DNA from: an uncultured Phycisphaerales bacterium
GTDB taxonomy: Bacteria; Planctomycetota; Phycisphaerae; Sedimentisphaerales; Anaerobacaceae
Direction: 5' to 3'
DNA: 64,000 nucleotides
Assembly (NCBI GenBank): GCA_963718665.1
Contig: OY970359.1
Coordinates: 288,001 to 352,000 of the forward strand
A program made the translations under genes and the position numbers. This document shows, one piece after another, positions 29,361 to 46,296 of the stretch (the stretch's first letter is position 1; the number at the start of each line of letters is the position of its first letter). A model generated the notes under the pieces. It was not told the origin of the DNA. It was given only the letters and a program-made list of their open reading frames with translations, and did no database searches.

Positions 29361-30653
<1,293 letters not shown>

Positions 30654-30664
30654 TTATGACCTTT

Positions 30665-31582
30665 CTATTTAGCAGGTAAAATCGCGACCATTTTTTCGAG
30701 CGCGTTTTTAGCCCTGGCCGCAATATCTTCAGGCACTGTGATTTTATAATGCATATCTTCAAGAGACCAGAGCACCTTATCAAGGGTTATGCGTTTCATA
30801 TTCGGGCAAATCGCCCGAGTAGCCGCCGGGTAAAATTCCTTGCCCTGGTTTTCTTTTTTCAACGTATGAATTATTCCTGTCTCAGTAGCAATAATAAATT
30901 GTTTGGCGTCGCTTTGCTTCGCGAATTTGAGCATCTGGCCCGTGCTGAGGAGCTTATCGCTTACGGCCTTCACCGGCTCGGTGCACTCGGGATGCGCCAT
31001 TACAATCGCACCGGGATGCGCATCCCTGGCTTTTTTTATGTCGTCTTCGGTAATAAACGCGTGCGTCGGGCAATATCCGGGCCACAAAATCATTTCACGG
31101 CCTGTCTTTTCAATCACAAACCTGCCCAAATGCTGGTCGGGAACAAAAATTATTTTGCTGTTTTTCGGCAGTGATTCGACAACTTCGACGGCATTTGCGC
31201 TTGTGCAACAATAATCGCTTTCGGCTTTTACCTCCGCGGAGCTGTTCACGTAGCAGACCACCAAAGCGCCGGGGTTCTTGTGTTTCAATTCTCTCAACTG
31301 CTCGCCGGTAATCATATCCGCCATGGGGCAGCCGGCGTTTTTATCCGGCAAAAGGACTGTTTTGCCGGGCGACAAAATCGCGGCGGTCTCCGCCATAAAT
31401 TTGACGCCGCAGAAAACTATCACGTCGGCATTCGTCGCCGAGGCCTTGACGCTCAACGCAAGCGAATCGCCCGTGAAATCCGCAATATCCTGGATTTCGC
31501 CGGGCTGATAATTATGCGCAAGTATGACGGCGTTGCGCTCGGCCTTTAGCTCTTTGATTTTTTTCATCAACGACTCGTTCAT
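30665..31582 (-). CDS. nadA: Quinolinate synthase
   Basis: ILAHNYQ, GDSL, FCGVKFMAETA, GCPMAD, YVNSSAEVKA, AHPEC, CPNMK. Confidence 0.96.
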   Translation of the reverse strand: MNESLMKKIKELKAERNAVILAHNYQPGEIQDIADFTGDSLALSVKASATNADVIVFCGVKFMAETAAILSPGKTVLLPDKNAGCPMADMITGEQLRELKHKNPGALVVCYVNSSAEVKAESDYCCTSANAVEVVESLPKNSKIIFVPDQHLGRFVIEKTGREMILWPGYCPTHAFITEDDIKKARDAHPGAIVMAHPECTEPVKAVSDKLLSTGQMLKFAKQSDAKQFIIATETGIIHTLKKENQGKEFYPAATRAICPNMKRITLDKVLWSLEDMHYKITVPEDIAARAKNALEKMVAILPAK

Positions 31583-32526
31583 TTTTTCTTTTTTCTTTTG
31601 CCGCTTTTTTTGGCGGAGTGTTTTTTATATACAAGCTCGGCGTTGGGGGTTGTAACGGTAACGCCCGGCGGAACGGATTCCTTAATCCAGACGTTTCCGC
31701 CGACGACAGCGCCTTTTCCTATTGTTATATCACCCAGAATTGTCGCCTCGGCGTATATTGTTACGTTATCCTCAATCGTCGGGTGGCGTTTGCCTCCCTT
31801 AATAATCCTGCCTTTCTCATCTTTCTGGAAACTTAATGCTCCCAGCGTCGTGCCCTGGTAAATTTTAACGTTATCGCCAATAATGCTCGTTTCGCCAATC
31901 ACGACGCCGGTGCCGTGGTCAATAAAGAAGTTTTTGCCGATTGTGGCGCCGGGGTGAATATCGATACCCGTCCTGGTATGGGCGCACTCGGTCATAATTC
32001 GCGGAATCAGCGGCACCTCTTTTATGAATAGCTCGTGGGCAATGCGATATATGGCTATCGCTATTATGCAGGGATAGCTAATGACAATCTCTTCGGGAGA
32101 TTTCGCGGCCGGGTCACCGTCATACGCGGCCTTGACGTCGCCTTTAAGCATTTCCCGGATATGAGGCAGCTGCGTCAGGAGATGAATGGTAGCATCTTCG
32201 GCCATTTTATGGCAGCCGCCCGTTTCGCAATTTTCCAGCCGGCAGCGGTATTTGAGCGCACGTTCTATCTGTGTGGAAAGCTCGGTGTAAATGTGGCAAA
32301 GGACGTCTATCACGACGAAGTTGACGTTCGATTTTGTTACCATTCTTTTGCCGGTAAAACCGGGGAAAAGGACCTCGAAAATCATATCAAGTACTTCGAG
32401 GATTTTGTCCCGCACAGGCAGATTGGTCGCGTCGATGAAGTTTATTCCCAAATCGCCCTGGTAGGTCCCGACGATTTCAGCGACTAATTGTTCAAGCTTT
32501 TTGTCTGTCAAATCAGCTTTGGCCAT
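31579..32526 (-). CDS. cysE: Serine O-acetyltransferase
   Basis: GDPAAKS, IDIHPGATIG, FIDHGTGVVIGET, KRHPTIED. Confidence 0.92.
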   Translation of the reverse strand: MAKADLTDKKLEQLVAEIVGTYQGDLGINFIDATNLPVRDKILEVLDMIFEVLFPGFTGKRMVTKSNVNFVVIDVLCHIYTELSTQIERALKYRCRLENCETGGCHKMAEDATIHLLTQLPHIREMLKGDVKAAYDGDPAAKSPEEIVISYPCIIAIAIYRIAHELFIKEVPLIPRIMTECAHTRTGIDIHPGATIGKNFFIDHGTGVVIGETSIIGDNVKIYQGTTLGALSFQKDEKGRIIKGGKRHPTIEDNVTIYAEATILGDITIGKGAVVGGNVWIKESVPPGVTVTTPNAELVYKKHSAKKSGKRKKKK

Positions 32527-32559
32527 ATAAGGTCCTCTCCTATAACCACCACGCGGCTT

Positions 32560-33489
32560 CTATGTGACGGCGGCAAACATTTCAGTAGATATATAACGCT
32601 CGCCGGTATCGGGCAGAATCACGACTATCGTCTTGCCCTGGTTTTTGGGACGCTGCGAGACCTGGATTGCAGCCCATATCGCCGCACCGCAGCTTATCCC
32701 GGCCAGTATCCCTTCTTTGGATGCCAGTTGACGAGCGGTCTCCATCGCATCCTGGTTTGTAACCTGAATTATTTCATCAATTATCTCACGGTTTAGCACG
32801 TCCGGCAAAAAACCGGCGCCGATACCCTGAATCTTATGCGGGCCTGGTTTGCCGCCTGAAAGCACAGGCGAATCCTTCGGCTCAACCGCAATTACTTTGA
32901 GATTTTTGTTTCGGCTTTTCAACACCTCGCCGCAACCGGTAATCGTTCCCCCCGTCCCGACGCCGGCCACAAAAAAATCAACCTTGCCATCGGTATCCGC
33001 CCATATTTCCTCGGCTGTCGTCTCACGGTGAACCTGCGGATTGGCAGGATTACTGAACTGCTGAGGCATAAAGGTGTTTGGGGTTTGGGCCATAAGCTCT
33101 TCGGCTTTTTTTATCGCGCCTCTCATTCCTTCGGCAGCAGGAGTAAGAACAAGTTTTGCGCCAAACATCGCCAGTATCTTGCGCCGTTCTATGCTCATCG
33201 ACTCCGGCATCGTCAGAATCAGATGATATCCCTTTGCCGCACAGACAAAGGCAAGGCCTATACCCGTGTTGCCGCTTGTCGGCTCGATGATTACAGTATC
33301 CGGCTTTATCAATCCCTTGTTTTCAGCGTCCTCTATCATCGACAACGCAATCCTGTCTTTGACGCTGCCGCAGGGATTTCTGGACTCAAGTTTTGCAACT
33401 ATAGTCGCCACGCCCGGATTCAATTTGTTAATCCGGACAAGAGGCGTAAAACCAATCGAAGCAGTTATATCATCAAATATCGCGCTCAT
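32560..33489 (-). CDS. cysK: Cysteine synthase A
   Basis: [46 protein letters not shown]. Confidence 0.96.
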
Positions 33490-33503
33490 AGCAATTTCCA
33501 ATT

Positions 33504-33935
33504 CTATATCTGGTAATCCGACTTGTTGACTTTAGATTTTTCAATCACATCCTGCAGAGTTGTTGCCTGTAAAACATTTCTCACTGCCCGCTGGATATCG
33601 CTCCACACCTGCCTGGCTACACAATTGACCGCCTTATTACAGTATTTTTCGTTGCTTACACATTCCACAGTAACAACCGGCCCCTCAAAGACATCAAAAA
33701 CATCGCTTAGTTTAATCTTTTCGGGTGGATTAGCCAGAATATATCCTCCCTTTGCGCCGCGCTGACTTCGTATAAGGCCCGCAGATTTAAGGGCAGCCAT
33801 CAGTTGCTCAAGGTATTTGACTGAAATATCCTGATTCTGGGCAATCACCCTTGTCTGGAGAGGCCCTTTTCCGAAGTGTTCCGCCAACTCCAAAACCGCC
33901 CGCATCGCATATCTTGTTCTTGTTGATAGCTTCAT
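33504..33935 (-). CDS. Rrf2-family regulator (IscR/CymR-like, three Cys)
   Basis: [30 protein letters not shown]...YC...NC. Confidence 0.92.
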
Positions 33936-36128: not shown

Positions 36129-37079
36129 TTATGGCTTTGCCTGCTGCTGAGTCATAAGATTTCGCTGGGTTTGTCCCAGAGCCGCCATGCCGCCGAGATT
36201 CATCGTATCGAGAACAGAACTCGGCACAATCATAAGCGAGCCGCCTGCCCGTATGCCTTCATAAACGATGTTCATTGCGCGAAGCTGCAAAGCAACAGGG
36301 TTATCCTGGTATCCTTTGGACGCCATGGCGAACTTTTCGGCAATTTCCATTTCCGCCTGTCCGAGTATTCCTCGCGCCTGCCGTTCTCTTTCGGCCTGGG
36401 CCTGCTTGGAAAGAACGTCCTTGAGGTTTTCAGGAATGGCTATGTCGCGGATTTCGATTGAGGTAACACTGATACCCCATGCCTCGGTCTTTGCTTCGAG
36501 CACCTTCTGAAGCGTCTTAGCCACCTTTTCCCGGTCGGAAAGAATTTCAGCAAGGGAATGGATGCCTACTATATCCCGAAGCGCGGTCTGAACAGCCAGT
36601 GAAATTGCCTGATAGTAGCTTTCGACCTCAAGCAGGGCTTTTTGGCTATCCCAGACATGCCAAAACGCTATTGCGTCGATATTCACAGGCACGGTATCGC
36701 TGGTAAGCATCGACTCGCTGTAAAAAGTTGTGGTGCGAACTCGCATATCCACAATACGGATAACACTTTCGAGGATGGGTAAAATCATAAAAAAGCCCGG
36801 GCCCCTGACAGAACTAAAACGACCTAATCGCAACACAAGGGCTTTATCCCATTCGGCCAAAAGGTGTGCGGACAAGGACCATAGTGCCGCAAGAATAAAA
36901 CCGACTATGAACGTGGCAACAGCAGGAGCCGTTCTGTCTGCCCGTAACAGAACTATGCCGCCAATAATTGTCCCTACAGCAATGATAACTGTAAGGAAGG
37001 TAATTGGTGCATAAGTCTTCATTCGCTGAATCTGGCGGACAGCATGGTCTTTATTAAGTTGTGTCATAGCATCATACAT
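36129..37079 (-). CDS. SPFH/stomatin (slipin) family protein
   Basis: VLRLGRF...GPG, QTALRDIVG, WGISVTSIEIRD, QAQAERERQAR, ALQLR; SD AAGGAG before ATG 37079. Confidence 0.9.
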   Translation of the reverse strand: MYDAMTQLNKDHAVRQIQRMKTYAPITFLTVIIAVGTIIGGIVLLRADRTAPAVATFIVGFILAALWSLSAHLLAEWDKALVLRLGRFSSVRGPGFFMILPILESVIRIVDMRVRTTTFYSESMLTSDTVPVNIDAIAFWHVWDSQKALLEVESYYQAISLAVQTALRDIVGIHSLAEILSDREKVAKTLQKVLEAKTEAWGISVTSIEIRDIAIPENLKDVLSKQAQAERERQARGILGQAEMEIAEKFAMASKGYQDNPVALQLRAMNIVYEGIRAGGSLMIVPSSVLDTMNLGGMAALGQTQRNLMTQQQAKP

Positions 37080-37193
37080 AGAGTTCTCCTTTTTGCGAAT
37101 AGTTTCAGTTAGTCCGGATGATACTTTTTCTGAAATGGCTTGTAGAAGATTGAAACGCACGAGATTCTCCTTTCCGCCGAAAGTATCGGCAAC

Positions 37194-37583
37194 TTATTCG
37201 GGTTGTTGTTTCTGCATACTCCGCAAGTATTCGACTATTTCATCGATGGTGAGATTTTGCAAATGGGCTCTTGAAATAAAATCTCTGCAAAGTTCTTCCA
37301 GCGCCCGCAGATTTTCACGATTCTTTTTCGCAGGAATAGACGGCTGCGGCCGGACAAATACACCTGTTCCCTGCTGCGTATCGAGAAAGCCGAGAAGCTG
37401 AAGCTGCGAATAGGCCTTTACCACAGTATTGGGGTTGACTTCCAGTTTTACAGCCAGGTCGCGGATAGTTGGTAATCTTTCGCCCGGCAGGATTGTGCCT
37501 GCGGAAATACTGGATAATATTATATCCACGAGTTGGCGATAAAAAGGCACATAGCTTTGTTTGTCTAACTTAAAGTTTATCAT
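37194..37583 (-). CDS. GntR-family regulator (YtrA subfamily)
   Basis: PFYRQL, PGERLPTIRDLA, VNPNTVVKAY, QGTGVFV; short C-terminal domain. Confidence 0.92.
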   Translation of the reverse strand: MINFKLDKQSYVPFYRQLVDIILSSISAGTILPGERLPTIRDLAVKLEVNPNTVVKAYSQLQLLGFLDTQQGTGVFVRPQPSIPAKKNRENLRALEELCRDFISRAHLQNLTIDEIVEYLRSMQKQQPE

Positions 37584-37796: not shown

Positions 37797-38951
37797 TTAT
37801 CGGCCAGCGTCGTCCATATCAACGATATCCTCTTCTTCAACGGGCATAAACCACTTTTGGGCTATGAACGTTGGTATAACCGCGCTTGCGATTACAACAC
37901 CTACAAGGACTGAATACTGCACCTGGTCAATGTAGCCAGCGTTAAGCCCGAACAAGCTCGAAATCGTTCCAAAGGTAAGTCCCGTGCTCATCAATAATGT
38001 CGTGTATGTGCTTCCGTTGCGAATATATTTTCTCGCGAAGAAGTAAACGCCGATGAATTTGGTTGCTATTTTCAGCAGGAACAAAATAACAAATATCCCT
38101 CCTGCCGTGATTAGCATAGGCACCGATATTTTAAGCCCGCCAACGATGAAGAATACGGGCGTTATGAATGCATAAGCGACGGTACGAAGACGATCCCGGA
38201 CCGCTTTATTGCCGGACGTTTCGCCGAAATGGCGCGACATCAAAAGCCCTAATATAAACGCCGGCAAAATCGCGTGCCCGTCACCCAATTTGGCAAAATA
38301 CATAAATGCAATCAAAAGCAGGAATACGTATTTTATTTCCGGCTCAATCACCTTATTTTTCAACGTCTTGCTGTCAAACACTTTGTGTGAGAATTTTTCG
38401 GCAAAATATATCACATTCAGAGAAACCGATATGAAGACCAGCGTGTATATTGTCGGTTTGATGAAGAGAATGCTTAACGCAAGGGCGGTTCCCATTTCGG
38501 TAATGAAAGTTGACGCCATAAGAAACTTGCCTATCTGTGTTGATGACAATCCCGTCTCAACCAATACCGAATAGACCACAGCGAGCGAGGTCGTCGATAA
38601 AGCAGTGCCCGCAATCAGAGATGCCTGAAGAGACCAGCCCGCGACAAAAAATGTATAGAGGAAAACACCTAAGAACGGACACAGAAAAGAGAACCCGCCT
38701 ATGAGCATACTTTCTTTGAATTTCTCCCGCATCAAACGCGTATCAATCTCGGTCCCCGCTAAATACGTCAGGAGAATGCCCCCAAAACCGGCCAAGTACA
38801 TCATCCATTCTTCCGGCTTGAGACCAAAATACCCCCCTATCGCTCCGAGCAGGATTTCAATTATGGCTACCGAAAGCCCCAACTTCAAAGACAGCAAACT
38901 CGAAACGAAAATCAAACCACCTACAACCAGCGGAACCAAATCTGCATTCAT
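37797..38951 (-). CDS. Cation:proton antiporter (CPA2/Kef-type), no C-terminal TrkA domain
   Basis: About 12 TM helices; AIIEILLG, LTYLAGTEID, ALSTTSLAVV, PAFILGL, PVFFIVGG. Confidence 0.85.
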   Translation of the reverse strand: MNADLVPLVVGGLIFVSSLLSLKLGLSVAIIEILLGAIGGYFGLKPEEWMMYLAGFGGILLTYLAGTEIDTRLMREKFKESMLIGGFSFLCPFLGVFLYTFFVAGWSLQASLIAGTALSTTSLAVVYSVLVETGLSSTQIGKFLMASTFITEMGTALALSILFIKPTIYTLVFISVSLNVIYFAEKFSHKVFDSKTLKNKVIEPEIKYVFLLLIAFMYFAKLGDGHAILPAFILGLLMSRHFGETSGNKAVRDRLRTVAYAFITPVFFIVGGLKISVPMLITAGGIFVILFLLKIATKFIGVYFFARKYIRNGSTYTTLLMSTGLTFGTISSLFGLNAGYIDQVQYSVLVGVVIASAVIPTFIAQKWFMPVEEEDIVDMDDAGR

Positions 38952-38971
38952 ACTTTAATTTCCTTAAAAAG

Positions 38972-39041
38972 AAAAAACCTCTATCAATCTTTCGATAGAG
39001 GTCTAAAAAATAACCCCTACCGTTGCCGGTAGAGGTTATTA
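38972..39041 (-). terminator. Two tandem intrinsic terminators in the riboswitch leader
   Basis: Minus strand ATAACCTCTACCG-GCAA-CGGTAGGGGTTAT-TTTTT (overlaps the aptamer 3' end), then ACCTCTATC...GATAGAGGT-TTTTT. Confidence 0.75.
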
Positions 39042-39082
39042 TCCCTATTTATGAGGGCGGTTATTAGGCGAACCTCATCGCC
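39029..39082 (-). ncRNA. Fluoride riboswitch (crcB motif) #1, leading the antiporter gene
   Basis: Minus strand GGCGATGAGGTTCGCC...AACCGCCCT...AGGGATAATAACCTCTAC; pseudoknot GAGGT/ACCTC; TTGAAA-N17-TATTAT upstream. Confidence 0.88.
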
Positions 39083-39209
39083 ACCTTATTTGTAATAATA
39101 AAGTAACAGGTGTGAACTTTCAACACAATTTTTGATGTTTTTCGAGCCCCTTCACGAAGGTTCATATTGATTTGACATTTACGGTTATAATGCCGATAAT
39201 AAAAGATAA

Positions 39210-39257
39210 GGGGATGGAGTTCCCCATAACCGCTTGTATTGGCTGATAACTCCTGAC
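39210..39257 (+). ncRNA. Fluoride riboswitch #2, leading the dynamin-enolase operon
   Basis: GGGGATGGAGTTCCCC-ATAACCGC...GCTGATAACTCCT; pseudoknot GGAGT/ACTCC; TTGACA at 39172. Confidence 0.88.
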
Positions 39258-39324
39258 GATTTTCTGCGGCAATTTGGCTGTAGAAACGTAAAATAAGTTG
39301 CGCAAAAGATTAAGGAATGCGGTT

Positions 39325-41145
39325 ATGGGCGGCAATAACAAACCGAAAGAAAATCAAATTTACGCGCCACTAACTCTGAATATTCAAGAAGAGCTGGAAG
39401 ATGCCCTTGGTATTTTTGATTCACTTGGCACGGTATTTAGCTCGGATTCACAGAAGCTGCTCGAGCTCAAAGAGCGTATTAACGAAGGCCGATTCCATCT
39501 TGCGGTTTTAGGGCAATTTAAACGAGGCAAAAGCACCTTTCTCAACGCATTACTCGGGGAGACGCTACTGCCGACTTCTGTCGTGCCCCTGACGATGATT
39601 CCAACCTTTATTAAATCGGGCCCGGTCAGACGAGCCATAATTTATTACCAAGACCAAAATAAAAAAACCAATGAGATACAAGCGGATGAGCCGGAACAAT
39701 TGAATGTGTTTCTGCGAAAATTTGTAACGGAAGTTGAGAATCCAAAGAATCGTCTCGGCATATCGCAAGTCGAAGTTTTTCATCCTGCCTCTATTCTTCA
39801 GAACGGCGTAGTTATGATAGATACCCCCGGTATCGGTTCAACTTTGAAGCATAACACGGAGGCGACGCTCAATTTCCTTCCTCAGTGCGACGCTGCATTA
39901 TTTCTCGTTTCAGCCGACCCGCCCATAACTGATACGGAAGTGAAATTTCTTAAAGAAGTGAGGTCTAAAGTCCCGCGGCTGTTCTTTGTTTTAAACAAGA
40001 TTGATTACCTGTCCGGTGAAGATAAGGATAAGGCACTGGAATTCTTCAGGAAAGTTTTGGCAGAACAAGCCGAAATCGACTCTGATTCGCCTGTATTCTG
40101 TGTTTCTGCACAAAAGGGGCTTGAGGCAAAAGGAATGAAAGATTCCCTTGGGTGGGCAAAAAGCGGGATGGAAACAGCAGAAAAATACTTGGTTGGATTC
40201 CTGGCAAGCAAAAAAATAGAGGCACTGAATGAAGCGGTTGCCCTGAAAACCAATGATATCGTTACCGATTGCCTTATGAGAGTGAATCTCACAATCAATT
40301 CGCTCAAAATGCCGCTGGTAGATATGGAAAGGAAAATGGCCGTTTTCGAGGCCAAACTTAAGGAGTCACAAAACGAACGAATCGCTTTTGGCGACATCCT
40401 GACAGGGGAAAGAAAACGGATGGTCGAATCGCTTTATGATTATGCACAAACGCTTAAGAAAAAGGCCCGGTTGTATCTTGATAGCGTTGCCGTGGAACAC
40501 GCAACCAAGGGAGAGAAATCTCTGGATGAAGACACTGCTCAGGAGGCATTGGATGAGACAATCCCCGGATTCTGTGAGCATGAGGCCGGCCAAATGAGGA
40601 GGATATTTGACCAGCGAGCCACTGATTTATTAAAGAAGCACCAGAAGAAGGTAAATATTCTTGCTGAGTCCATCCGCAAAACGGCGGCCCAACTTTTCGA
40701 TATTTCGTATCAGCCGCTCCAACATCCTGCCGTTATGCCATCAATGCGGGACCTTTACTGGATTACTCAAAAGTGGGACACATCTTTTTTACCCATTCCA
40801 TTCGGTCTGCTGGAAAAAATTTTACCTAAGCGTATTCGTGAAGCAAGGGTTCATAAAAGGATAAAATCGCAGATTGACGACCTGGCAAATTACAACGTGG
40901 GCAAAATGCGGTTAGAGGTGCAGGAAAATATCGAAAACGCTTATGCTGCTTTCGCCAGAAATCTGGATTCATCTATGCAGGAGATTATTTCTTCGATTCA
41001 TATCGCCCTAAAAACAGCATTTACAAGAAAAAAAGACCAGTCCGAAACGATTGCAGATGAGATGCGAGAGTTAGAGTCGGCAGCTATGAAATTGGCTGAT
41101 ATCAAGAATAAACTTGTTCGGGATAGTGTCTATGCAAAACAATGA
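39325..41145 (+). CDS. Bacterial dynamin-like GTPase
   Basis: G1 GQFKRGKS, G2 PLT, G3 DTPG, G4 NKID, long helical stalk. Confidence 0.9.
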   Translation: MGGNNKPKENQIYAPLTLNIQEELEDALGIFDSLGTVFSSDSQKLLELKERINEGRFHLAVLGQFKRGKSTFLNALLGETLLPTSVVPLTMIPTFIKSGPVRRAIIYYQDQNKKTNEIQADEPEQLNVFLRKFVTEVENPKNRLGISQVEVFHPASILQNGVVMIDTPGIGSTLKHNTEATLNFLPQCDAALFLVSADPPITDTEVKFLKEVRSKVPRLFFVLNKIDYLSGEDKDKALEFFRKVLAEQAEIDSDSPVFCVSAQKGLEAKGMKDSLGWAKSGMETAEKYLVGFLASKKIEALNEAVALKTNDIVTDCLMRVNLTINSLKMPLVDMERKMAVFEAKLKESQNERIAFGDILTGERKRMVESLYDYAQTLKKKARLYLDSVAVEHATKGEKSLDEDTAQEALDETIPGFCEHEAGQMRRIFDQRATDLLKKHQKKVNILAESIRKTAAQLFDISYQPLQHPAVMPSMRDLYWITQKWDTSFLPIPFGLLEKILPKRIREARVHKRIKSQIDDLANYNVGKMRLEVQENIENAYAAFARNLDSSMQEIISSIHIALKTAFTRKKDQSETIADEMRELESAAMKLADIKNKLVRDSVYAKQ

Positions 41146-41178
41146 ATTAAAAACTGAAAGGACTTTTAGGAAAATATT

Positions 41179-42453
41179 ATGAACAATCAAATTACATCGG
41201 TCAAAGCAATGGAAATTCTTGATTCTCGCGGGAATCCAACTATTCGCGTATTTTGCACGCTTAAAAACGGCATTACCGCCAAAGCGTCGGTTCCATCGGG
41301 CGCATCTACGGGAGAAAACGAAGCCGTCGAGCTACGCGACGGTGACAAAAAACGTTATGGCGGTAAAGGAGTGTTGAAGGCCGTTGAAAACGTAAATAAG
41401 CTCATAGCTCCCCAAGTAATCGGATTATACCCCGAAAACCAGGCCCGAATAGACGAGATTATGATTAAGTTGGACAGAACCCCCAACAAAAACAAACTCG
41501 GCGCAAACGCGATACTTGGGGTTTCAATGGCGGTCGCCCGCGCAGCGGCAAAAGCGGCAAATCGGCCTTTGTATGCTTATCTGGGAGAGCCATCAGCCGT
41601 GCGCCTGCCGATACCAATGATGAATATTCTCAACGGCGGAAAACACGCGGACAACAGCGTTGACTTCCAGGAATTTATGGTTATGCCAATAGGTGCGCCA
41701 ACTTTTGCCGAGGCCTTACGCTACGGCGCGGAAACATTTCACGCTTTGAAATCAATTTTGAAAAAGAAGGGATATACAACAAGCGTCGGGGACGAGGGCG
41801 GCTTCGCCCCCAATCTCAAAAGCAATGATGAGGCCTGCGACGTTATCGTTTCAGCAATTGAAGCGGCCGGGTATAAACCGGGAAAAGACATAGCCATTGC
41901 GCTGGACCCGGCAGCCAGCTCGTTTTATGAAGATGGAAAATATAATCTGGCAAAATCGGGGCAGGGACAAAAAACCAGTTCTCAAATGACTCAACTTTAC
42001 AAAGCATGGATTGAGAAATATCCGATTGTTTCTATCGAGGACGGCCTTGCGGAAAATGACTGGAAAGGATTTCAGGAGCATACTTCCGTACTTGGCGGCA
42101 AGATTCAGATAGTTGGAGATGATATTTATGTTACCAACACCGAATTTATAAAACGAGGAATTGAAGAACATACAACCAATGCCGTTCTTATAAAACTCAA
42201 CCAGATCGGCACCGTGACTGAGACAATTGAGGCAATCGAATTATGTCGTAAGGCGAAGTGGGGTTATGTAATTTCACATCGTTCGGGCGAGACAGAAGAT
42301 ACCTTTATGGCTGATTTCGCTGTCGCAATGGGCGGCGGTCAAATCAAGACCGGTTCTGCCTGCCGAAGCGAACGAATTGCCAAGTACAACAGGTTGTTGG
42401 AAATCGAAGCCGAATTAGGTAAGGCGGCGGTGTTCAGTAATCCTTTGGCATAG
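41179..42453 (+). CDS. eno: Enolase
   Basis: [50 protein letters not shown]. Confidence 0.98.
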
Positions 42454-42472
42454 CGTTGAAAATGATTTGATA

Positions 42473-42685
42473 ATGGGATTAACAAAGGCCTTATTCTGTA
42501 TAGCAGCCATCTTAAGCGCTTTGGCGGCGATTATGGCCTTTCTAATTATTTATGGAGAATACGCGCATCATTATCCTGACAAGCGAAAAGTATTGAAAAC
42601 AGCTCTTGAGGCAGGCATTTTTACTCTTCTTTTCTTTTTTGCTTTGGGGTTGTTGTTGGCAATATTTTTGCCGTTGTATTTTTAG
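42473..42685 (+). CDS. Small 2-TM membrane protein
   Basis: Two hydrophobic helices flanking YGEYAHHYPDK; tight operon spacing. Confidence 0.7.
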   Translation: MGLTKALFCIAAILSALAAIMAFLIIYGEYAHHYPDKRKVLKTALEAGIFTLLFFFALGLLLAIFLPLYF

Positions 42686-42690
42686 AAAAG

Positions 42691-43371
42691 ATGGAAGAAA
42701 CAAAAGACACTCGCATAAGAATTATCGAGGCGTTTTCTTCGAATGGATGCCCTTTGTGCGATATGTTGCGCCGGGATGAGCTTGATAGTTTGTATCAATG
42801 GGTGGGGCAGAGCAATAATAATGCCAAAAACTCTGAGCAAATAAAACGACTTTTAGACGCAGGCGGATTCTGCAACTATCACTTTTGGCAATTCCAGGAA
42901 ATGAGTTCTCATTATGGTAGCGCAAACATAGGCGCTCAATTAATCGAAAAACTATTAGAAATCTTAAGAGCGGATAAACAAAAATGTTTTGTCGATGCGA
43001 GTAAAAATGGAGAGAATCATTTGAAGATTTGGTTAATCGAGTGTCCTCTATGCTGCGAGTTGAGCAAAAAAAAAAGAGAGTATCTTAAGGAGCTATCGGT
43101 TGTTTTGACGGACAATAAGCATAAGACAGAGTACGAACAGAACTGTGGCCTATGCATACCGCATCTTATGAAAATTACAGGTTATGTTGATAACGATTCG
43201 CTCCTGGATATCCTATATGAAACAGAAATATATCAATTAGAAAAAATTAAAAGCGATGCCTCCGGTTTCGTCAGTAAAAGGTATCCGCCTCAACGTTGGA
43301 AACAGACCGAAGACGAAAAGAAGTCATGGTTTCGAGCCATTGAAAAGATAGCAGGCAGACGTGGTGCTTAG
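42691..43371 (+). CDS. Cys/His metal-binding protein with duplicated motif (DUF6062-like)
   Basis: CPLC...GFCNYH and CPLC...GLCIPH. Confidence 0.7.
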   Translation: MEETKDTRIRIIEAFSSNGCPLCDMLRRDELDSLYQWVGQSNNNAKNSEQIKRLLDAGGFCNYHFWQFQEMSSHYGSANIGAQLIEKLLEILRADKQKCFVDASKNGENHLKIWLIECPLCCELSKKKREYLKELSVVLTDNKHKTEYEQNCGLCIPHLMKITGYVDNDSLLDILYETEIYQLEKIKSDASGFVSKRYPPQRWKQTEDEKKSWFRAIEKIAGRRGA

Positions 43372-43386
43372 AGTGGAAATAGCATT

Positions 43387-43656
43387 ATGGTCTATAAAAA
43401 AGAGTGTCAGCGAGATAAGAACGAACGACGCGAAGACGCACTTCGACCAAGTCGTTATCTTGGTTATGACCACGATTCTCTGGGTATGCACTTGGTTTCG
43501 CGAGAGGCCTACAAAATTGCTGTCCATTGTTTCAGACGAGCTATCTGGCTAAACCCCTTTGAGCCGGTGTTCAAAAAACATTTAGCGCTGTGCCTGTATA
43601 AACTTGAACGAAACACCGAAGCGATTAAGCGGCCTGATAACAAAAAGGACAGGTAG
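43387..43656 (+). CDS. Small TPR protein
   Basis: DSLGMHL...YKIAVHCFRRAIWLNP...KHLALCLYKL...EA. Confidence 0.7.
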   Translation: MVYKKECQRDKNERREDALRPSRYLGYDHDSLGMHLVSREAYKIAVHCFRRAIWLNPFEPVFKKHLALCLYKLERNTEAIKRPDNKKDR

Positions 43657-43665
43657 GCACTCAAA

Positions 43666-43719
43666 GTAGAGGTCATCAGCTTAATCAATCGCTAAGCAGT
43701 TCAGGCGAACCTCATCGCC
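43666..43719 (-). ncRNA. Fluoride riboswitch #3, antisense to the operon 3' end
   Basis: Minus strand GGCGATGAGGTTCGCC-TGAACTGCTTAG...TTAAGCTGATGACCTCTAC; first 16 nt identical to #1. Confidence 0.85.
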
Positions 43720-43879
43720 TTTATCGATATGAACGGAATTTTATGTTTTCCCTGACGTTATAATTCAGAACGCACATTAGAAAAGCCCCATCCTCGCCCA
43801 CGGCAATCACACGTTCATGGTTGCGGAATGCGAGCAGGCCGAAATGAAACGGCACAAAGTGCATATAATCCGGAAATAG

Positions 43880-46162
43880 TTAATGTATCTTGTCGCTTTC
43901 GCGACTAAGCAGATAACGCCAAAGGGGAAACTCTGTATATGGGTAGTTGTCAGTAATAATTGATGTGGTTTCCGTAAGGTCATCCATACTTTTTCCATCC
44001 CGCATATAAAAAAGATTAAGCAGTTGCTCGCTTGTTATGCAGACCTTATCAATTTCACTCAAATCGTTTACAAGCTGAGGGTTTGTAAAGGCGTGCTCTA
44101 TCTTTGACCGGTCAACATTTGTCGGGGCAGAAGTGCCGAGCAGGTAAAAGCCCCGGTTGTGCGGGCCTTTCCAGAGGGTCATGTTCTTGAAAACGGAATA
44201 GAAAGTTTTACATATATACATACTATCCTGCTGGTTGCCCCCCAGGAACCACAGGCACATAACGCCGCCCGGCGTCAGGTGCTCCCTACACAGCGTAAAA
44301 AATTCCCGGGTATAAAGATTTACCGTGCCGGCATTGTAAACGGGAGGCGAAGGGTCAACAATAATTACGTCGTATTTGTCGGGACTCAGCAGCAAGAAGT
44401 TACGACCATCGTTGGCAATGAAACGGACATTCGGACGGCTTATAACTTTTTGTGCGTCGCTGTGATAATAGCCGAAATATTTATAAACCTCAGGCACAAG
44501 CTCAACACATGTAATATTCAAATCATCATAAATACACGCGGACCTCATGGTAGTCCCCATCCCGAAGCATATCATGAGCATTTCTTTCGGTTTATCAGCC
44601 AGCATAACCGGAAGATGTGCCATAAGTTTTGTCTCCGTGCACAAAAGGGTCTGCCCACAGCCGTTAATCCAGAGTTGCTTGATGCCGTCTCTGACAAAGC
44701 TGGTTACGGTTCCTTCCACGGTCTCCCGGTTGCGATATATCTCATAGTGGTTTGCGCCTTGTGCAATTCTGCTTTCAATGACGGCCAGAAACGGGTCTCT
44801 GCCTTTAAATCCAAGTGCAAGCAATATAACAATCGGAACTATTAGCAGAAACCTCAGTTTGTAACCCTTCGACGTGCGAGGTTCGAGCCACAAAAGAACC
44901 AATCCGAGCATGATATTTACGAAACCCAGTATAATTACGGTTTTGCTGGAGCCCAGCAGACTGATGAAAAGGAAGCCCGTAAAAAGAGAGCCGGTAACAT
45001 TGCCCACCGCATTAAATGTATACAGGATACCCACGGAAGTGCCAGCAAGGTTCGTGCTTTTGGCATAGCATAATGAGGCAATAGGAAATATGGCGCCAAA
45101 AAGAAGAGTAAGCGGCAGCACCAACACAACCGGCGAAAGCACCCTCGTTAAAAGATTGGTATCCAACGGACCGAAAAGATAAAGGTTGAAAATCGACAAA
45201 GCACCGATGGCCAACTCCAGGATTCCAAAAATTAACAGTGGAGTCCTGAGACGGTCCACATACCTGTTCACAAACATACTGCCAATCGCCACTCCTACAA
45301 GGAATATTGCCAACATACCGGAAAACGCGTATATCGAGGTCTGCAGAAACAGAATTAGCTGTCGCGTCCATACCACCTCATAGGCCAGTGCCGTAAATCC
45401 GCTTATCATAAACGCGATGAGCACCATTTTTCGCACCGTGTCCGAGTACATCGAAATGCGGTTGCCCACAGCATTGACAGCTACGTCGCGCGTGACGCCG
45501 GTTTGTCCGGTGAATCGTAATTGCCTGCGGTAAATAACAAATGTTATGAAACCGACCACAAGGTTTATTAACGCCCCAATGAATATGGTATTCCACTCGC
45601 CGATTGCGCCGATGGTAATGAAACCGCTCAGGAGAACACCCAAAACAGCTCCTAACGTATTCAATCCATACAACAAGCTGAAGTTCTTTCCGAACATCCC
45701 GCCTTGCCTGACAAGGTAGCTGGTCAAAGCAGGAAGTGTGCCGCCCATCAGCACCGTAGGAACCAGCAGCGAGAGAAAGGACACAACCACTTTTGACAAT
45801 GAAATCGCGGCGGCGCTTTGATGAGTGATTATAGAAACGAATTTGTAAACATCAACCGAGCCAATCAGGATGAAGGGTGTGACAATGGCAAAAACTGCGA
45901 GCCATATCTGCAACAGAGCAAAAATTTTCAACTGGTCATTGCGTTTATCAACAAGCCGGCCGAATATAAAGCTGCCCAGGGCCAACCCAGCCATAAAGGC
46001 GGCCAATGTTACGGCTGTGGCATAAGCGGTTACGCCAATTGTTCTTGAAAGGATTCTAAGATAGACAACCTCATAGATAAGGCCGCTGATTCCTGACGCG
46101 AAAAACAACAAAAAAACAATCTTTTGTGATACCGCCTGTCTGCTTGTTTTCACTTCTCCCAT
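43880..46162 (-). CDS. Fused MFS-like membrane domain / spermidine-synthase-like protein
   Basis: SGISGLIYEVVY...AFMAGLALGS, LYGLNTLGA; ICFGMGTT, VELVPEV, NDGRNFL, YDVIIVDP. Confidence 0.88.
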   Translation of the reverse strand: MGEVKTSRQAVSQKIVFLLFFASGISGLIYEVVYLRILSRTIGVTAYATAVTLAAFMAGLALGSFIFGRLVDKRNDQLKIFALLQIWLAVFAIVTPFILIGSVDVYKFVSIITHQSAAAISLSKVVVSFLSLLVPTVLMGGTLPALTSYLVRQGGMFGKNFSLLYGLNTLGAVLGVLLSGFITIGAIGEWNTIFIGALINLVVGFITFVIYRRQLRFTGQTGVTRDVAVNAVGNRISMYSDTVRKMVLIAFMISGFTALAYEVVWTRQLILFLQTSIYAFSGMLAIFLVGVAIGSMFVNRYVDRLRTPLLIFGILELAIGALSIFNLYLFGPLDTNLLTRVLSPVVLVLPLTLLFGAIFPIASLCYAKSTNLAGTSVGILYTFNAVGNVTGSLFTGFLFISLLGSSKTVIILGFVNIMLGLVLLWLEPRTSKGYKLRFLLIVPIVILLALGFKGRDPFLAVIESRIAQGANHYEIYRNRETVEGTVTSFVRDGIKQLWINGCGQTLLCTETKLMAHLPVMLADKPKEMLMICFGMGTTMRSACIYDDLNITCVELVPEVYKYFGYYHSDAQKVISRPNVRFIANDGRNFLLLSPDKYDVIIVDPSPPVYNAGTVNLYTREFFTLCREHLTPGGVMCLWFLGGNQQDSMYICKTFYSVFKNMTLWKGPHNRGFYLLGTSAPTNVDRSKIEHAFTNPQLVNDLSEIDKVCITSEQLLNLFYMRDGKSMDDLTETTSIITDNYPYTEFPLWRYLLSRESDKIH

Positions 46163-46225
46163 TTTCTCCTTTTTGCCCGGATTGGAGCAATAGACCTACC
46201 CTGGATAGATAATGCGTCGAAAGAC

Positions 46226-46296
46226 CTGGGGTACTAGGATTCGGACCTAGACTAACTGATCCAGAGTCAGTTGTGCTACCATTACACTATACCCCA
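46226..46296 (-). tRNA. tRNA-Gln(CTG)
   Basis: TGGGGTA/TACCCCA acceptor; ACTGA-CTCTGGA-TCAGT; T-loop TCCGAAT (atypical). Confidence 0.9.

Follow-up and report, generated by a model that had tools for sequence, protein, structure and literature searches.

The stretch of DNA analysed here (the window, 64,000 nucleotides) is part of contig OY970359.1 of an uncultured Phycisphaerales bacterium, whose genome is assembled in one contig of 2.61 Mb with a completeness of 94.64%. It contains an island controlled by fluoride riboswitches in which one gene, cpa2, codes for a transporter with the CPA2 fold. This transporter may be the fluoride exporter of the organism, with predicted F-/H+ exchange, a reading that we consider close to an even call. 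It is drawn from genomic context; what was directly observed are the aptamers and genes, the lack of any crcB or CLC-F match, and the patterns found across genomes. We also propose, tentatively, that the clade of this protein could form a third exporter family for fluoride in prokaryotes, spread horizontally among bacteria and archaea devoid of Fluc and CLC-F and provided with an accessory arm of dynamin and DUF6062 genes; a cation/proton antiporter of the NhaA fold would then have been turned to anion transport. The clade is a candidate for such a family because it is almost always under a fluoride switch and rarely found together with crcB. The gene and the three aptamers are:

37797..38951, minus strand: cpa2, CPA2-family cation/proton-antiporter-fold protein of 384 amino acids (PF00999, E 4e-35), candidate fluoride exporter
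39023..39091, minus strand: RS1, fluoride riboswitch aptamer (RF01734, 44.0 bits), predicted transcriptional ON switch of cpa2
39201..39262, plus strand: RS2, fluoride riboswitch aptamer (RF01734, 49.9 bits), predicted translational ON switch
43660..43728, minus strand: RS3, fluoride riboswitch aptamer (RF01734, 52.5 bits), intact, without terminator or downstream gene

An earlier note, made from the sequence alone, had described three crcB-type aptamers and proposed a check with the Rfam covariance model. The three matches to RF01734 detected by cmscan in the window all exceed the gathering score of 34, their cores coincide with the aptamers of the note, and the genome contains no others. In an alignment of 16 aptamers, the P1 stem and the pseudoknot were paired in 97.2% of the cells, with 11 two-sided changes, and none of 500 shuffles reached such values. 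RS1 and RS2 lie back to back, an arrangement kept in G008, L066, L143, L144 and L145, and each of them has, according to folding predictions, an expression platform followed by a gene. The elements involved are:

38975..39004, minus strand: second terminator-like hairpin of the RS1 leader (fold)
39009..39040, minus strand: first terminator hairpin of the RS1 leader, 14 bp (fold), its 5' arm being the pseudoknot strand of the aptamer
39095..39123, minus strand: sigma70-like site for RS1, 10/12, consensus match only
39172..39200, plus strand: sigma70-like site for RS2, 11/12, consensus match only

Promoter-like sites agreeing with the divergent sigma70-like promoters described earlier for this pair adjoin both aptamers; since the scan found 15 such sites against 14.9 expected, it is only their position that speaks for them. 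The RS1 leader is predicted to fold into two tandem terminators. Fluoride would lock the pseudoknot and withdraw the 5' arm of terminator 1, whose freed 3' arm would then pair with the 5' arm of terminator 2, disabling the second hairpin and allowing transcription of cpa2. This last pairing was found in fold predictions of the nascent transcript with the aptamer blocked, and such a relay between terminators was predicted in seven of the ten leaders folded, the other three having a single terminator. In full-length folds the second hairpin forms again in five of the seven relay leaders, which means that the relay could only work kinetically. For RS2, in which fold prediction gave no terminator, 11 nucleotides of the aptamer (39223-39233) are complementary to positions 39319-39329, which cover the AUG of a dynamin-like gene at 39325. 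The complementarity is conserved in all six orthologues, and the helix that it forms dominates the folds of four; fluoride would pull away the masking strand and switch the operon on. Two of the three switches, RS1 and RS2, are probably functional, and on these models RS1 likely turns on cpa2 and RS2 the operon of dynamin, enolase and DUF6062 genes.

The note had also remarked that no Fluc or CLC-F gene accompanies the aptamers, and this extends to the genome. Profile searches gave no PF02537 (CrcB) match in the island or in the rest of the genome, at its completeness of 94.64%, and the best hit of a tblastn search of the genome with two CrcB proteins had an E value of 0.77. The single CLC protein (721352-723277) carries the motifs GHGTD, GREGP and GVFGP and lacks the CLC-F signatures, given as GNNLI/GMGLI, GREGT/V and GEVTP in PMC11139923. 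According to the same review, bacterial fluoride exporters belong to two families only, Fluc and CLC-F, which are usually exclusive (about 3% have both), and riboswitches control some 15% of the Flucs and 30% of the CLC-Fs.

We have examined the distribution of the clade in 61 genomes of the order, the window's own included, and in the best 80 of 104 CPA2 loci from a GTDB scan, which have 59-93% identity and come from many bacterial phyla and from archaea. Fifty of these 80 were searched genome-wide, mostly those with longer loci and leaving out nine of the window's lineage. Rfam counts were taken as primary, our own covariance model (R1) being biased towards the lineage and missing some Rfam-positive loci. 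Within the order, cpa2 was found in ten of the 61 genomes at 78-100% identity, always 35-80 nucleotides behind a riboswitch. Across bacterial and archaeal phyla, 46 of the 50 genomes have a riboswitch above the cut-off 13-196 nucleotides upstream on the same strand. Of the 30 loci outside the genome-wide set, 23 have an aptamer upstream according to R1, nine of these loci being close to its training set, and three of the seven misses have no upstream DNA.

The known exporter seldom accompanies the clade. Only six of the 50 have crcB alongside the clade; CLC proteins occur in ten of the 50, and none of the CLCs of these or of the 61 order genomes bears the CLC-F signatures. In the order sample crcB was present in 0/10 carriers of cpa2 and 13/51 of the other genomes, and all 24 genomes of the genus lack it. 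Two archaeal groups were also scored for both genes. Among the Methanosarcinales (the order of G062), the clade is present in 19 of 201 genomes; crcB occurs in none of these 19 and in 127 of the other 182. Among the Methanobacteriaceae (the family of G071), 47 of 121 match at 44-73% identity, some of them partially, and crcB was found in 0/47 against 9/74. Distant paralogues (29-34% identity) served as a control: crcB was present in six of the nine genomes with them. Within one family (f5), similar leaders with switch and terminator precede crcB in G052 and cpa2 in G056. In a quick tree, from which we draw neither donor nor order of events, the carriers with crcB are spread over about four places.

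Some related arrangements were seen in these surveys. G042 (L030:6992-8176) and G047 (L028:641-1858), two crcB-negative genomes of the same order, contain a second, unrelated PF00999 family that keeps the DD motif and is located behind fluoride riboswitches with apparent anti-Shine-Dalgarno pairing. In G052 (L037:85-1602) a small membrane gene is found upstream of a unit of riboswitch, crcB and DUF190, paralleling the order small gene, TPR, riboswitch and cpa2 in G001.

A structural model of the CPA2 protein, built from 123 sequences, has a predicted local distance difference test score (pLDDT) of 87 and template modelling (TM) scores of 0.78 to NapA (5bz2) and 0.74 to KefC (8bxg). The protein thus combines the NhaA/NapA fold with a PF00999 match; its score with TIGR00932 (95.9) is under the cut-off of 238.3. 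Both Thermus thermophilus NapA (4bwz, 5bz2), with which it shares the helix-10 lysine and the second acid of helix 5, and Escherichia coli KefC, a CPA2 antiporter of the same fold, are about 20% identical to it. Unlike them, the island protein has a Thr for the first Asp of the DD motif, a change common to its clade, STGLT in place of the helix-11 R-G-E motif of NapA (also throughout the clade in the alignment), two extra invariant residues (K294 and R256), no regulatory domain and control by a fluoride riboswitch. In terms of the family's motif, position 5 is not Glu (T148), position 7 is acidic (E152, Asp in most sequences) and position 8 is Lys (K298, invariant across the clade); positions 6 and 7 are T-D or T-E instead of the Asp-Asp of electrogenic NapA and NhaA. 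The ion site is formed by T151-E152 plus K298, and STGLT, EPExK, K294 and R256 are the invariant motifs of the clade. On the exporter reading, the single carboxylate would be the proton carrier, and the anion would sit at K294, K298 and R256 and at the unwound helices rich in Ser/Thr, roles suggested by their conservation. By the motif rules of PMC6181914, such a site agrees with electroneutral cation/H+ exchange just as well as with anion exchange that uses one proton carrier. At six loci (L117, L118, L120, L122, L124 and L128) the acid of the ion site has shifted from helix 5 to helix 4 (E120/N152), and three of these six have no detected riboswitch.

We hold it nearly as likely as export, somewhat short of an even chance, that CPA2 is a fluoride-induced electroneutral K+ or Na+/H+ exchanger that protects the cell indirectly via pH, either by restoring it or by acidifying the cytoplasm, which would reduce the trapping of HF as F-. 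Cytoplasmic acidification by an antiporter is the idea associated with KefC, and a lowering of pH could partly replace an exporter and give the anticorrelation with crcB too. The NapA fold of the model agrees with this, and so does the ion site, where one carboxylate and the lysine are always kept and the Asp of position 7 is, according to PMC6181914, the ion-binding residue of the family. Several observations weigh against an exporter. Exactly one ion-site carboxylate is present in 74 of 74 sequences (T/D in 65, T/E in three and E/N in six), as in the electroneutral cation/H+ antiporters described in PMC6181914. Of the six genomes that have both genes, four place crcB no more than about 1.5 kb from the cpa2 switch, a position that suits a partner more than a replacement. 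In PMC11139923, Na+/H+ antiporters rank second among the classes linked to the riboswitch and are interpreted as acting in pH homeostasis. Furthermore, four of the 50 carriers have no riboswitch even at an E value of 1, the helix masking the dynamin start is not the dominant fold in two of the six RS2 orthologues, and neither full-length cpa2 nor crcB is present in 16 of the 24 genomes of the genus (near-complete ones included) or, scoring these two genes, in 65 of the 121 genomes of the Methanobacteriaceae. The Fisher values of the anticorrelation (1e-9, 0.012 and 0.10) are overstated because the genomes are kin and mostly incomplete metagenome-assembled ones. On the other hand, a helper should co-occur with exporters at the background rate or more, yet none of the 19 Methanosarcinales carriers has crcB; the invariant motifs proper to the clade also argue against an ordinary cation exchanger.

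It is improbable that a conventional exporter is simply missing from the assembly, or is not needed, with the anticorrelation produced by lineage sorting and the island being an ordinary accessory fluoride regulon. The incompleteness of the genome, the many relatives with neither gene and the fact that the 19 Methanosarcinales carriers may be a single family would favour it. Against it, the absence of crcB from all genomes of the genus makes a gap in one assembly an unlikely cause, and the anticorrelation has the same direction in three separate lineages. If CPA2 does export fluoride, anion transport by the CPA fold would be shown, it would become clear how numerous free-living anaerobes and methanogens manage with no Fluc, and an extra part would be available for organofluorine-degrading strains. 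Cation exchange, if true, would establish a way of tolerating fluoride that needs no exporter. The value of the island is in offering a directly testable candidate for a third exporter family together with an accessory dynamin operon. CLC-F proteins were themselves once mis-annotated and were exposed by the fluoride riboswitch, as stated in PMC7266159. The literature searched contained no CPA-type fluoride exporter and no test of riboswitch-linked Na+/H+ antiporters; the supplements of Baker 2012 and McIlwain 2021 may bear on the novelty.

Three working switches, as in the response proposed earlier, are not supported, since RS3 has neither -35 box nor terminator and faces no gene of its own. 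It points to the 3' end of the dynamin operon on the opposite strand, and the promoter scan detected no site upstream on its strand. Leader folds and alignment gave no terminator, unlike in its relatives, and the TTGCCA -35 box, present in the leaders of seven of seven aligned relatives, is deleted:

43738..43760, minus strand: remnant promoter of RS3, with a -10-like TAAAAT retained and an 8-nucleotide deletion at 43759/43760 that takes out the TTGCCA -35 box

In G007 and G017 the gene order is spd, riboswitch, cpa2, gntR and spfh. The window matches G017 up to 39082, where the similarity breaks off to resume from 43666, indicating that the 4.6 kb in between are an insertion into a resident switch. 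The back-to-back RS1/RS2 unit and its operon would have recombined into a resident riboswitch-cpa2 locus, stranding the old switch. RS3 is then probably the former switch of the locus, now a dead remnant as judged from these alignments, and the count of three switches is an accident of insertion. A misassembly at this point is unlikely, as contigs from X1 and X2 (perhaps the source samples) span the junction. A further-shortened remnant is found at the same place in G008, RS3 is absent from L144, and one contig of the X4 run joins 43678 to 46226, losing most of it. We consider it very unlikely that RS3 works, as a fluoride-linked antisense RNA tuning the dynamin operon. Its aptamer is intact and has the highest score of the three, it is oriented towards the 3' end of that operon and read-through from the upstream gene is possible; the loss of promoter and terminator and its truncation or absence in these relatives argue against such a function. 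In G019 (L032:9075-11665) three fluoride aptamers in direct orientation are each followed by unrelated cargo, with cpa2 present only as a 3' remnant, and in G006 the riboswitch precedes an unrelated gene of 151 amino acids. The cpa2 site looks like a hotspot of gene turnover that leaves the switch behind.

The operon behind RS2 contains, in this order:

39325..41145, plus strand: dynamin-like GTPase of 606 amino acids (PF00350, E 1.5e-29, riboswitch context); the open reading frame opens at TTG 39298
41179..42453, plus strand: second enolase copy of 424 amino acids (TIGR01060, 666 bits)
42467..42685, plus strand: small hydrophobic (membrane) protein of 70-72 amino acids, without Pfam family, recurring at the fluoride loci of G001, G052 and L094
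42691..43371, plus strand: DUF6062 protein with two CPLC...CxxH repeats (PF19538, E 3e-16)
43387..43656, plus strand: TPR protein of 89 amino acids, C-terminally truncated with respect to the 124-amino-acid orthologue of G001, its end being the RS3 junction

The first protein has the Dynamin_N GTPase domain shared by the bacterial dynamin-like LeoA, CrfC and DynA, and differs from them in being far under the curated cut-offs of their models and in being a single gene with a fluoride switch. Its role is perhaps membrane repair under fluoride stress, as suggested by the family. Among 401 genomes sampled from the phylum, 17 others have a homologue (E<1e-40), 14 of them from one family; 13 of the 17 have a riboswitch on the same strand within about 720 nucleotides upstream, in three the only one lies just downstream, and a contig end interrupts the remaining locus. 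A metagenome scan with the dynamin gave three close loci. At L069, L094 and L098 the dynamin gene is downstream of riboswitch-cpa2 on the same strand. At L077 it is near both cpa2 and crcB, so it is not specific to loci without Fluc.

The island enolase looks intact and is 80% identical to the housekeeping copy; the extra copy would offset the inhibition by fluoride, a known principle. DNA identity with the housekeeping gene (C1:1764494-1765777) is 53-67% over the first 400 nucleotides and 86-93% at nucleotides 600-900, a pattern that suggests gene conversion between the two copies. Among the 80 CPA2 loci, dynamin-like genes were found in six, enolase in six and DUF6062 in two by tblastn and a third by Pfam; DUF6062 follows riboswitch-cpa2 in L069 and L114. 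The module envisaged in the note does have a candidate exporter and a second enolase, but to call it self-contained goes too far, since its components are gained and lost independently of each other within the genus; the proposed membrane-remodelling set reduces to the dynamin-like gene, whose remodelling role is deduced from its family. We detected no link of fluoride with dynamin or DUF6062 in the literature searched, and the supplements of Baker 2012 and McIlwain 2021 may list such genes. Single open reading frames were unreliable at some loci, and only clusters were used for the survey of downstream cargo. Further cargo recurring behind riboswitch-cpa2 or dynamin includes prenyltransferase-fold proteins, MFS transporters, zinc-ribbon HEAT proteins, HAD/PAP2 phosphatases and a pyrophosphatase (L064, L078, L100, L102, L116; L075, L099, L105; L094, L098, L147; L077).

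Riboswitch-antiporter and riboswitch-enolase links are already published, enolase being listed among the genes under fluoride riboswitches in PMC11139923. As described in PMC11139923 and PMC7266159, the regulons with Fluc/CrcB or CLC-F have the aptamer and the ON logic in common with the island, which differs by its lack of a Fluc or CLC-F match, the antiporter in the first-gene slot, the predicted double-terminator relay and the cargo of dynamin, DUF6062 and small membrane protein. The closest multi-gene case is the FRM island of Enterobacter cloacae, where, according to PMC5533749, the operon ppaC-uspA-eno-gpmA-crcB-orf5249 was tested experimentally. Both islands are fluoride-switched and have an extra enolase, whereas that of the window is without crcB, has two divergent switches and is known from sequence alone.

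The island has a G+C content of 44.0% against 49.2% for the genome, which suggests horizontal gain. A GntR regulator and an SPFH (Band 7) gene (window 36129-37583) are its neighbours at the level of the genus. They were rejected as members of the regulon: the pair has its own promoter-like site (11/12, at 37620-37593), persists in genomes that have lost cpa2 (G006, G019) and adjoins it in only 4/80 loci. Also rejected as a member of the island was the fused MFS/spermidine-synthase-like gene which, with a tRNA, borders the variable region (window 43880-46296; tRNA at 46226-46296). Between xth and this tRNA the gene content varies in most relatives. Further upstream, the translations at window 29361-33935 resemble an Rrf2 regulator, cysteine synthase, serine acetyltransferase, a nadA-like protein and O-acetylhomoserine sulfhydrylase, and by this appearance may be a sulfur amino acid cluster.

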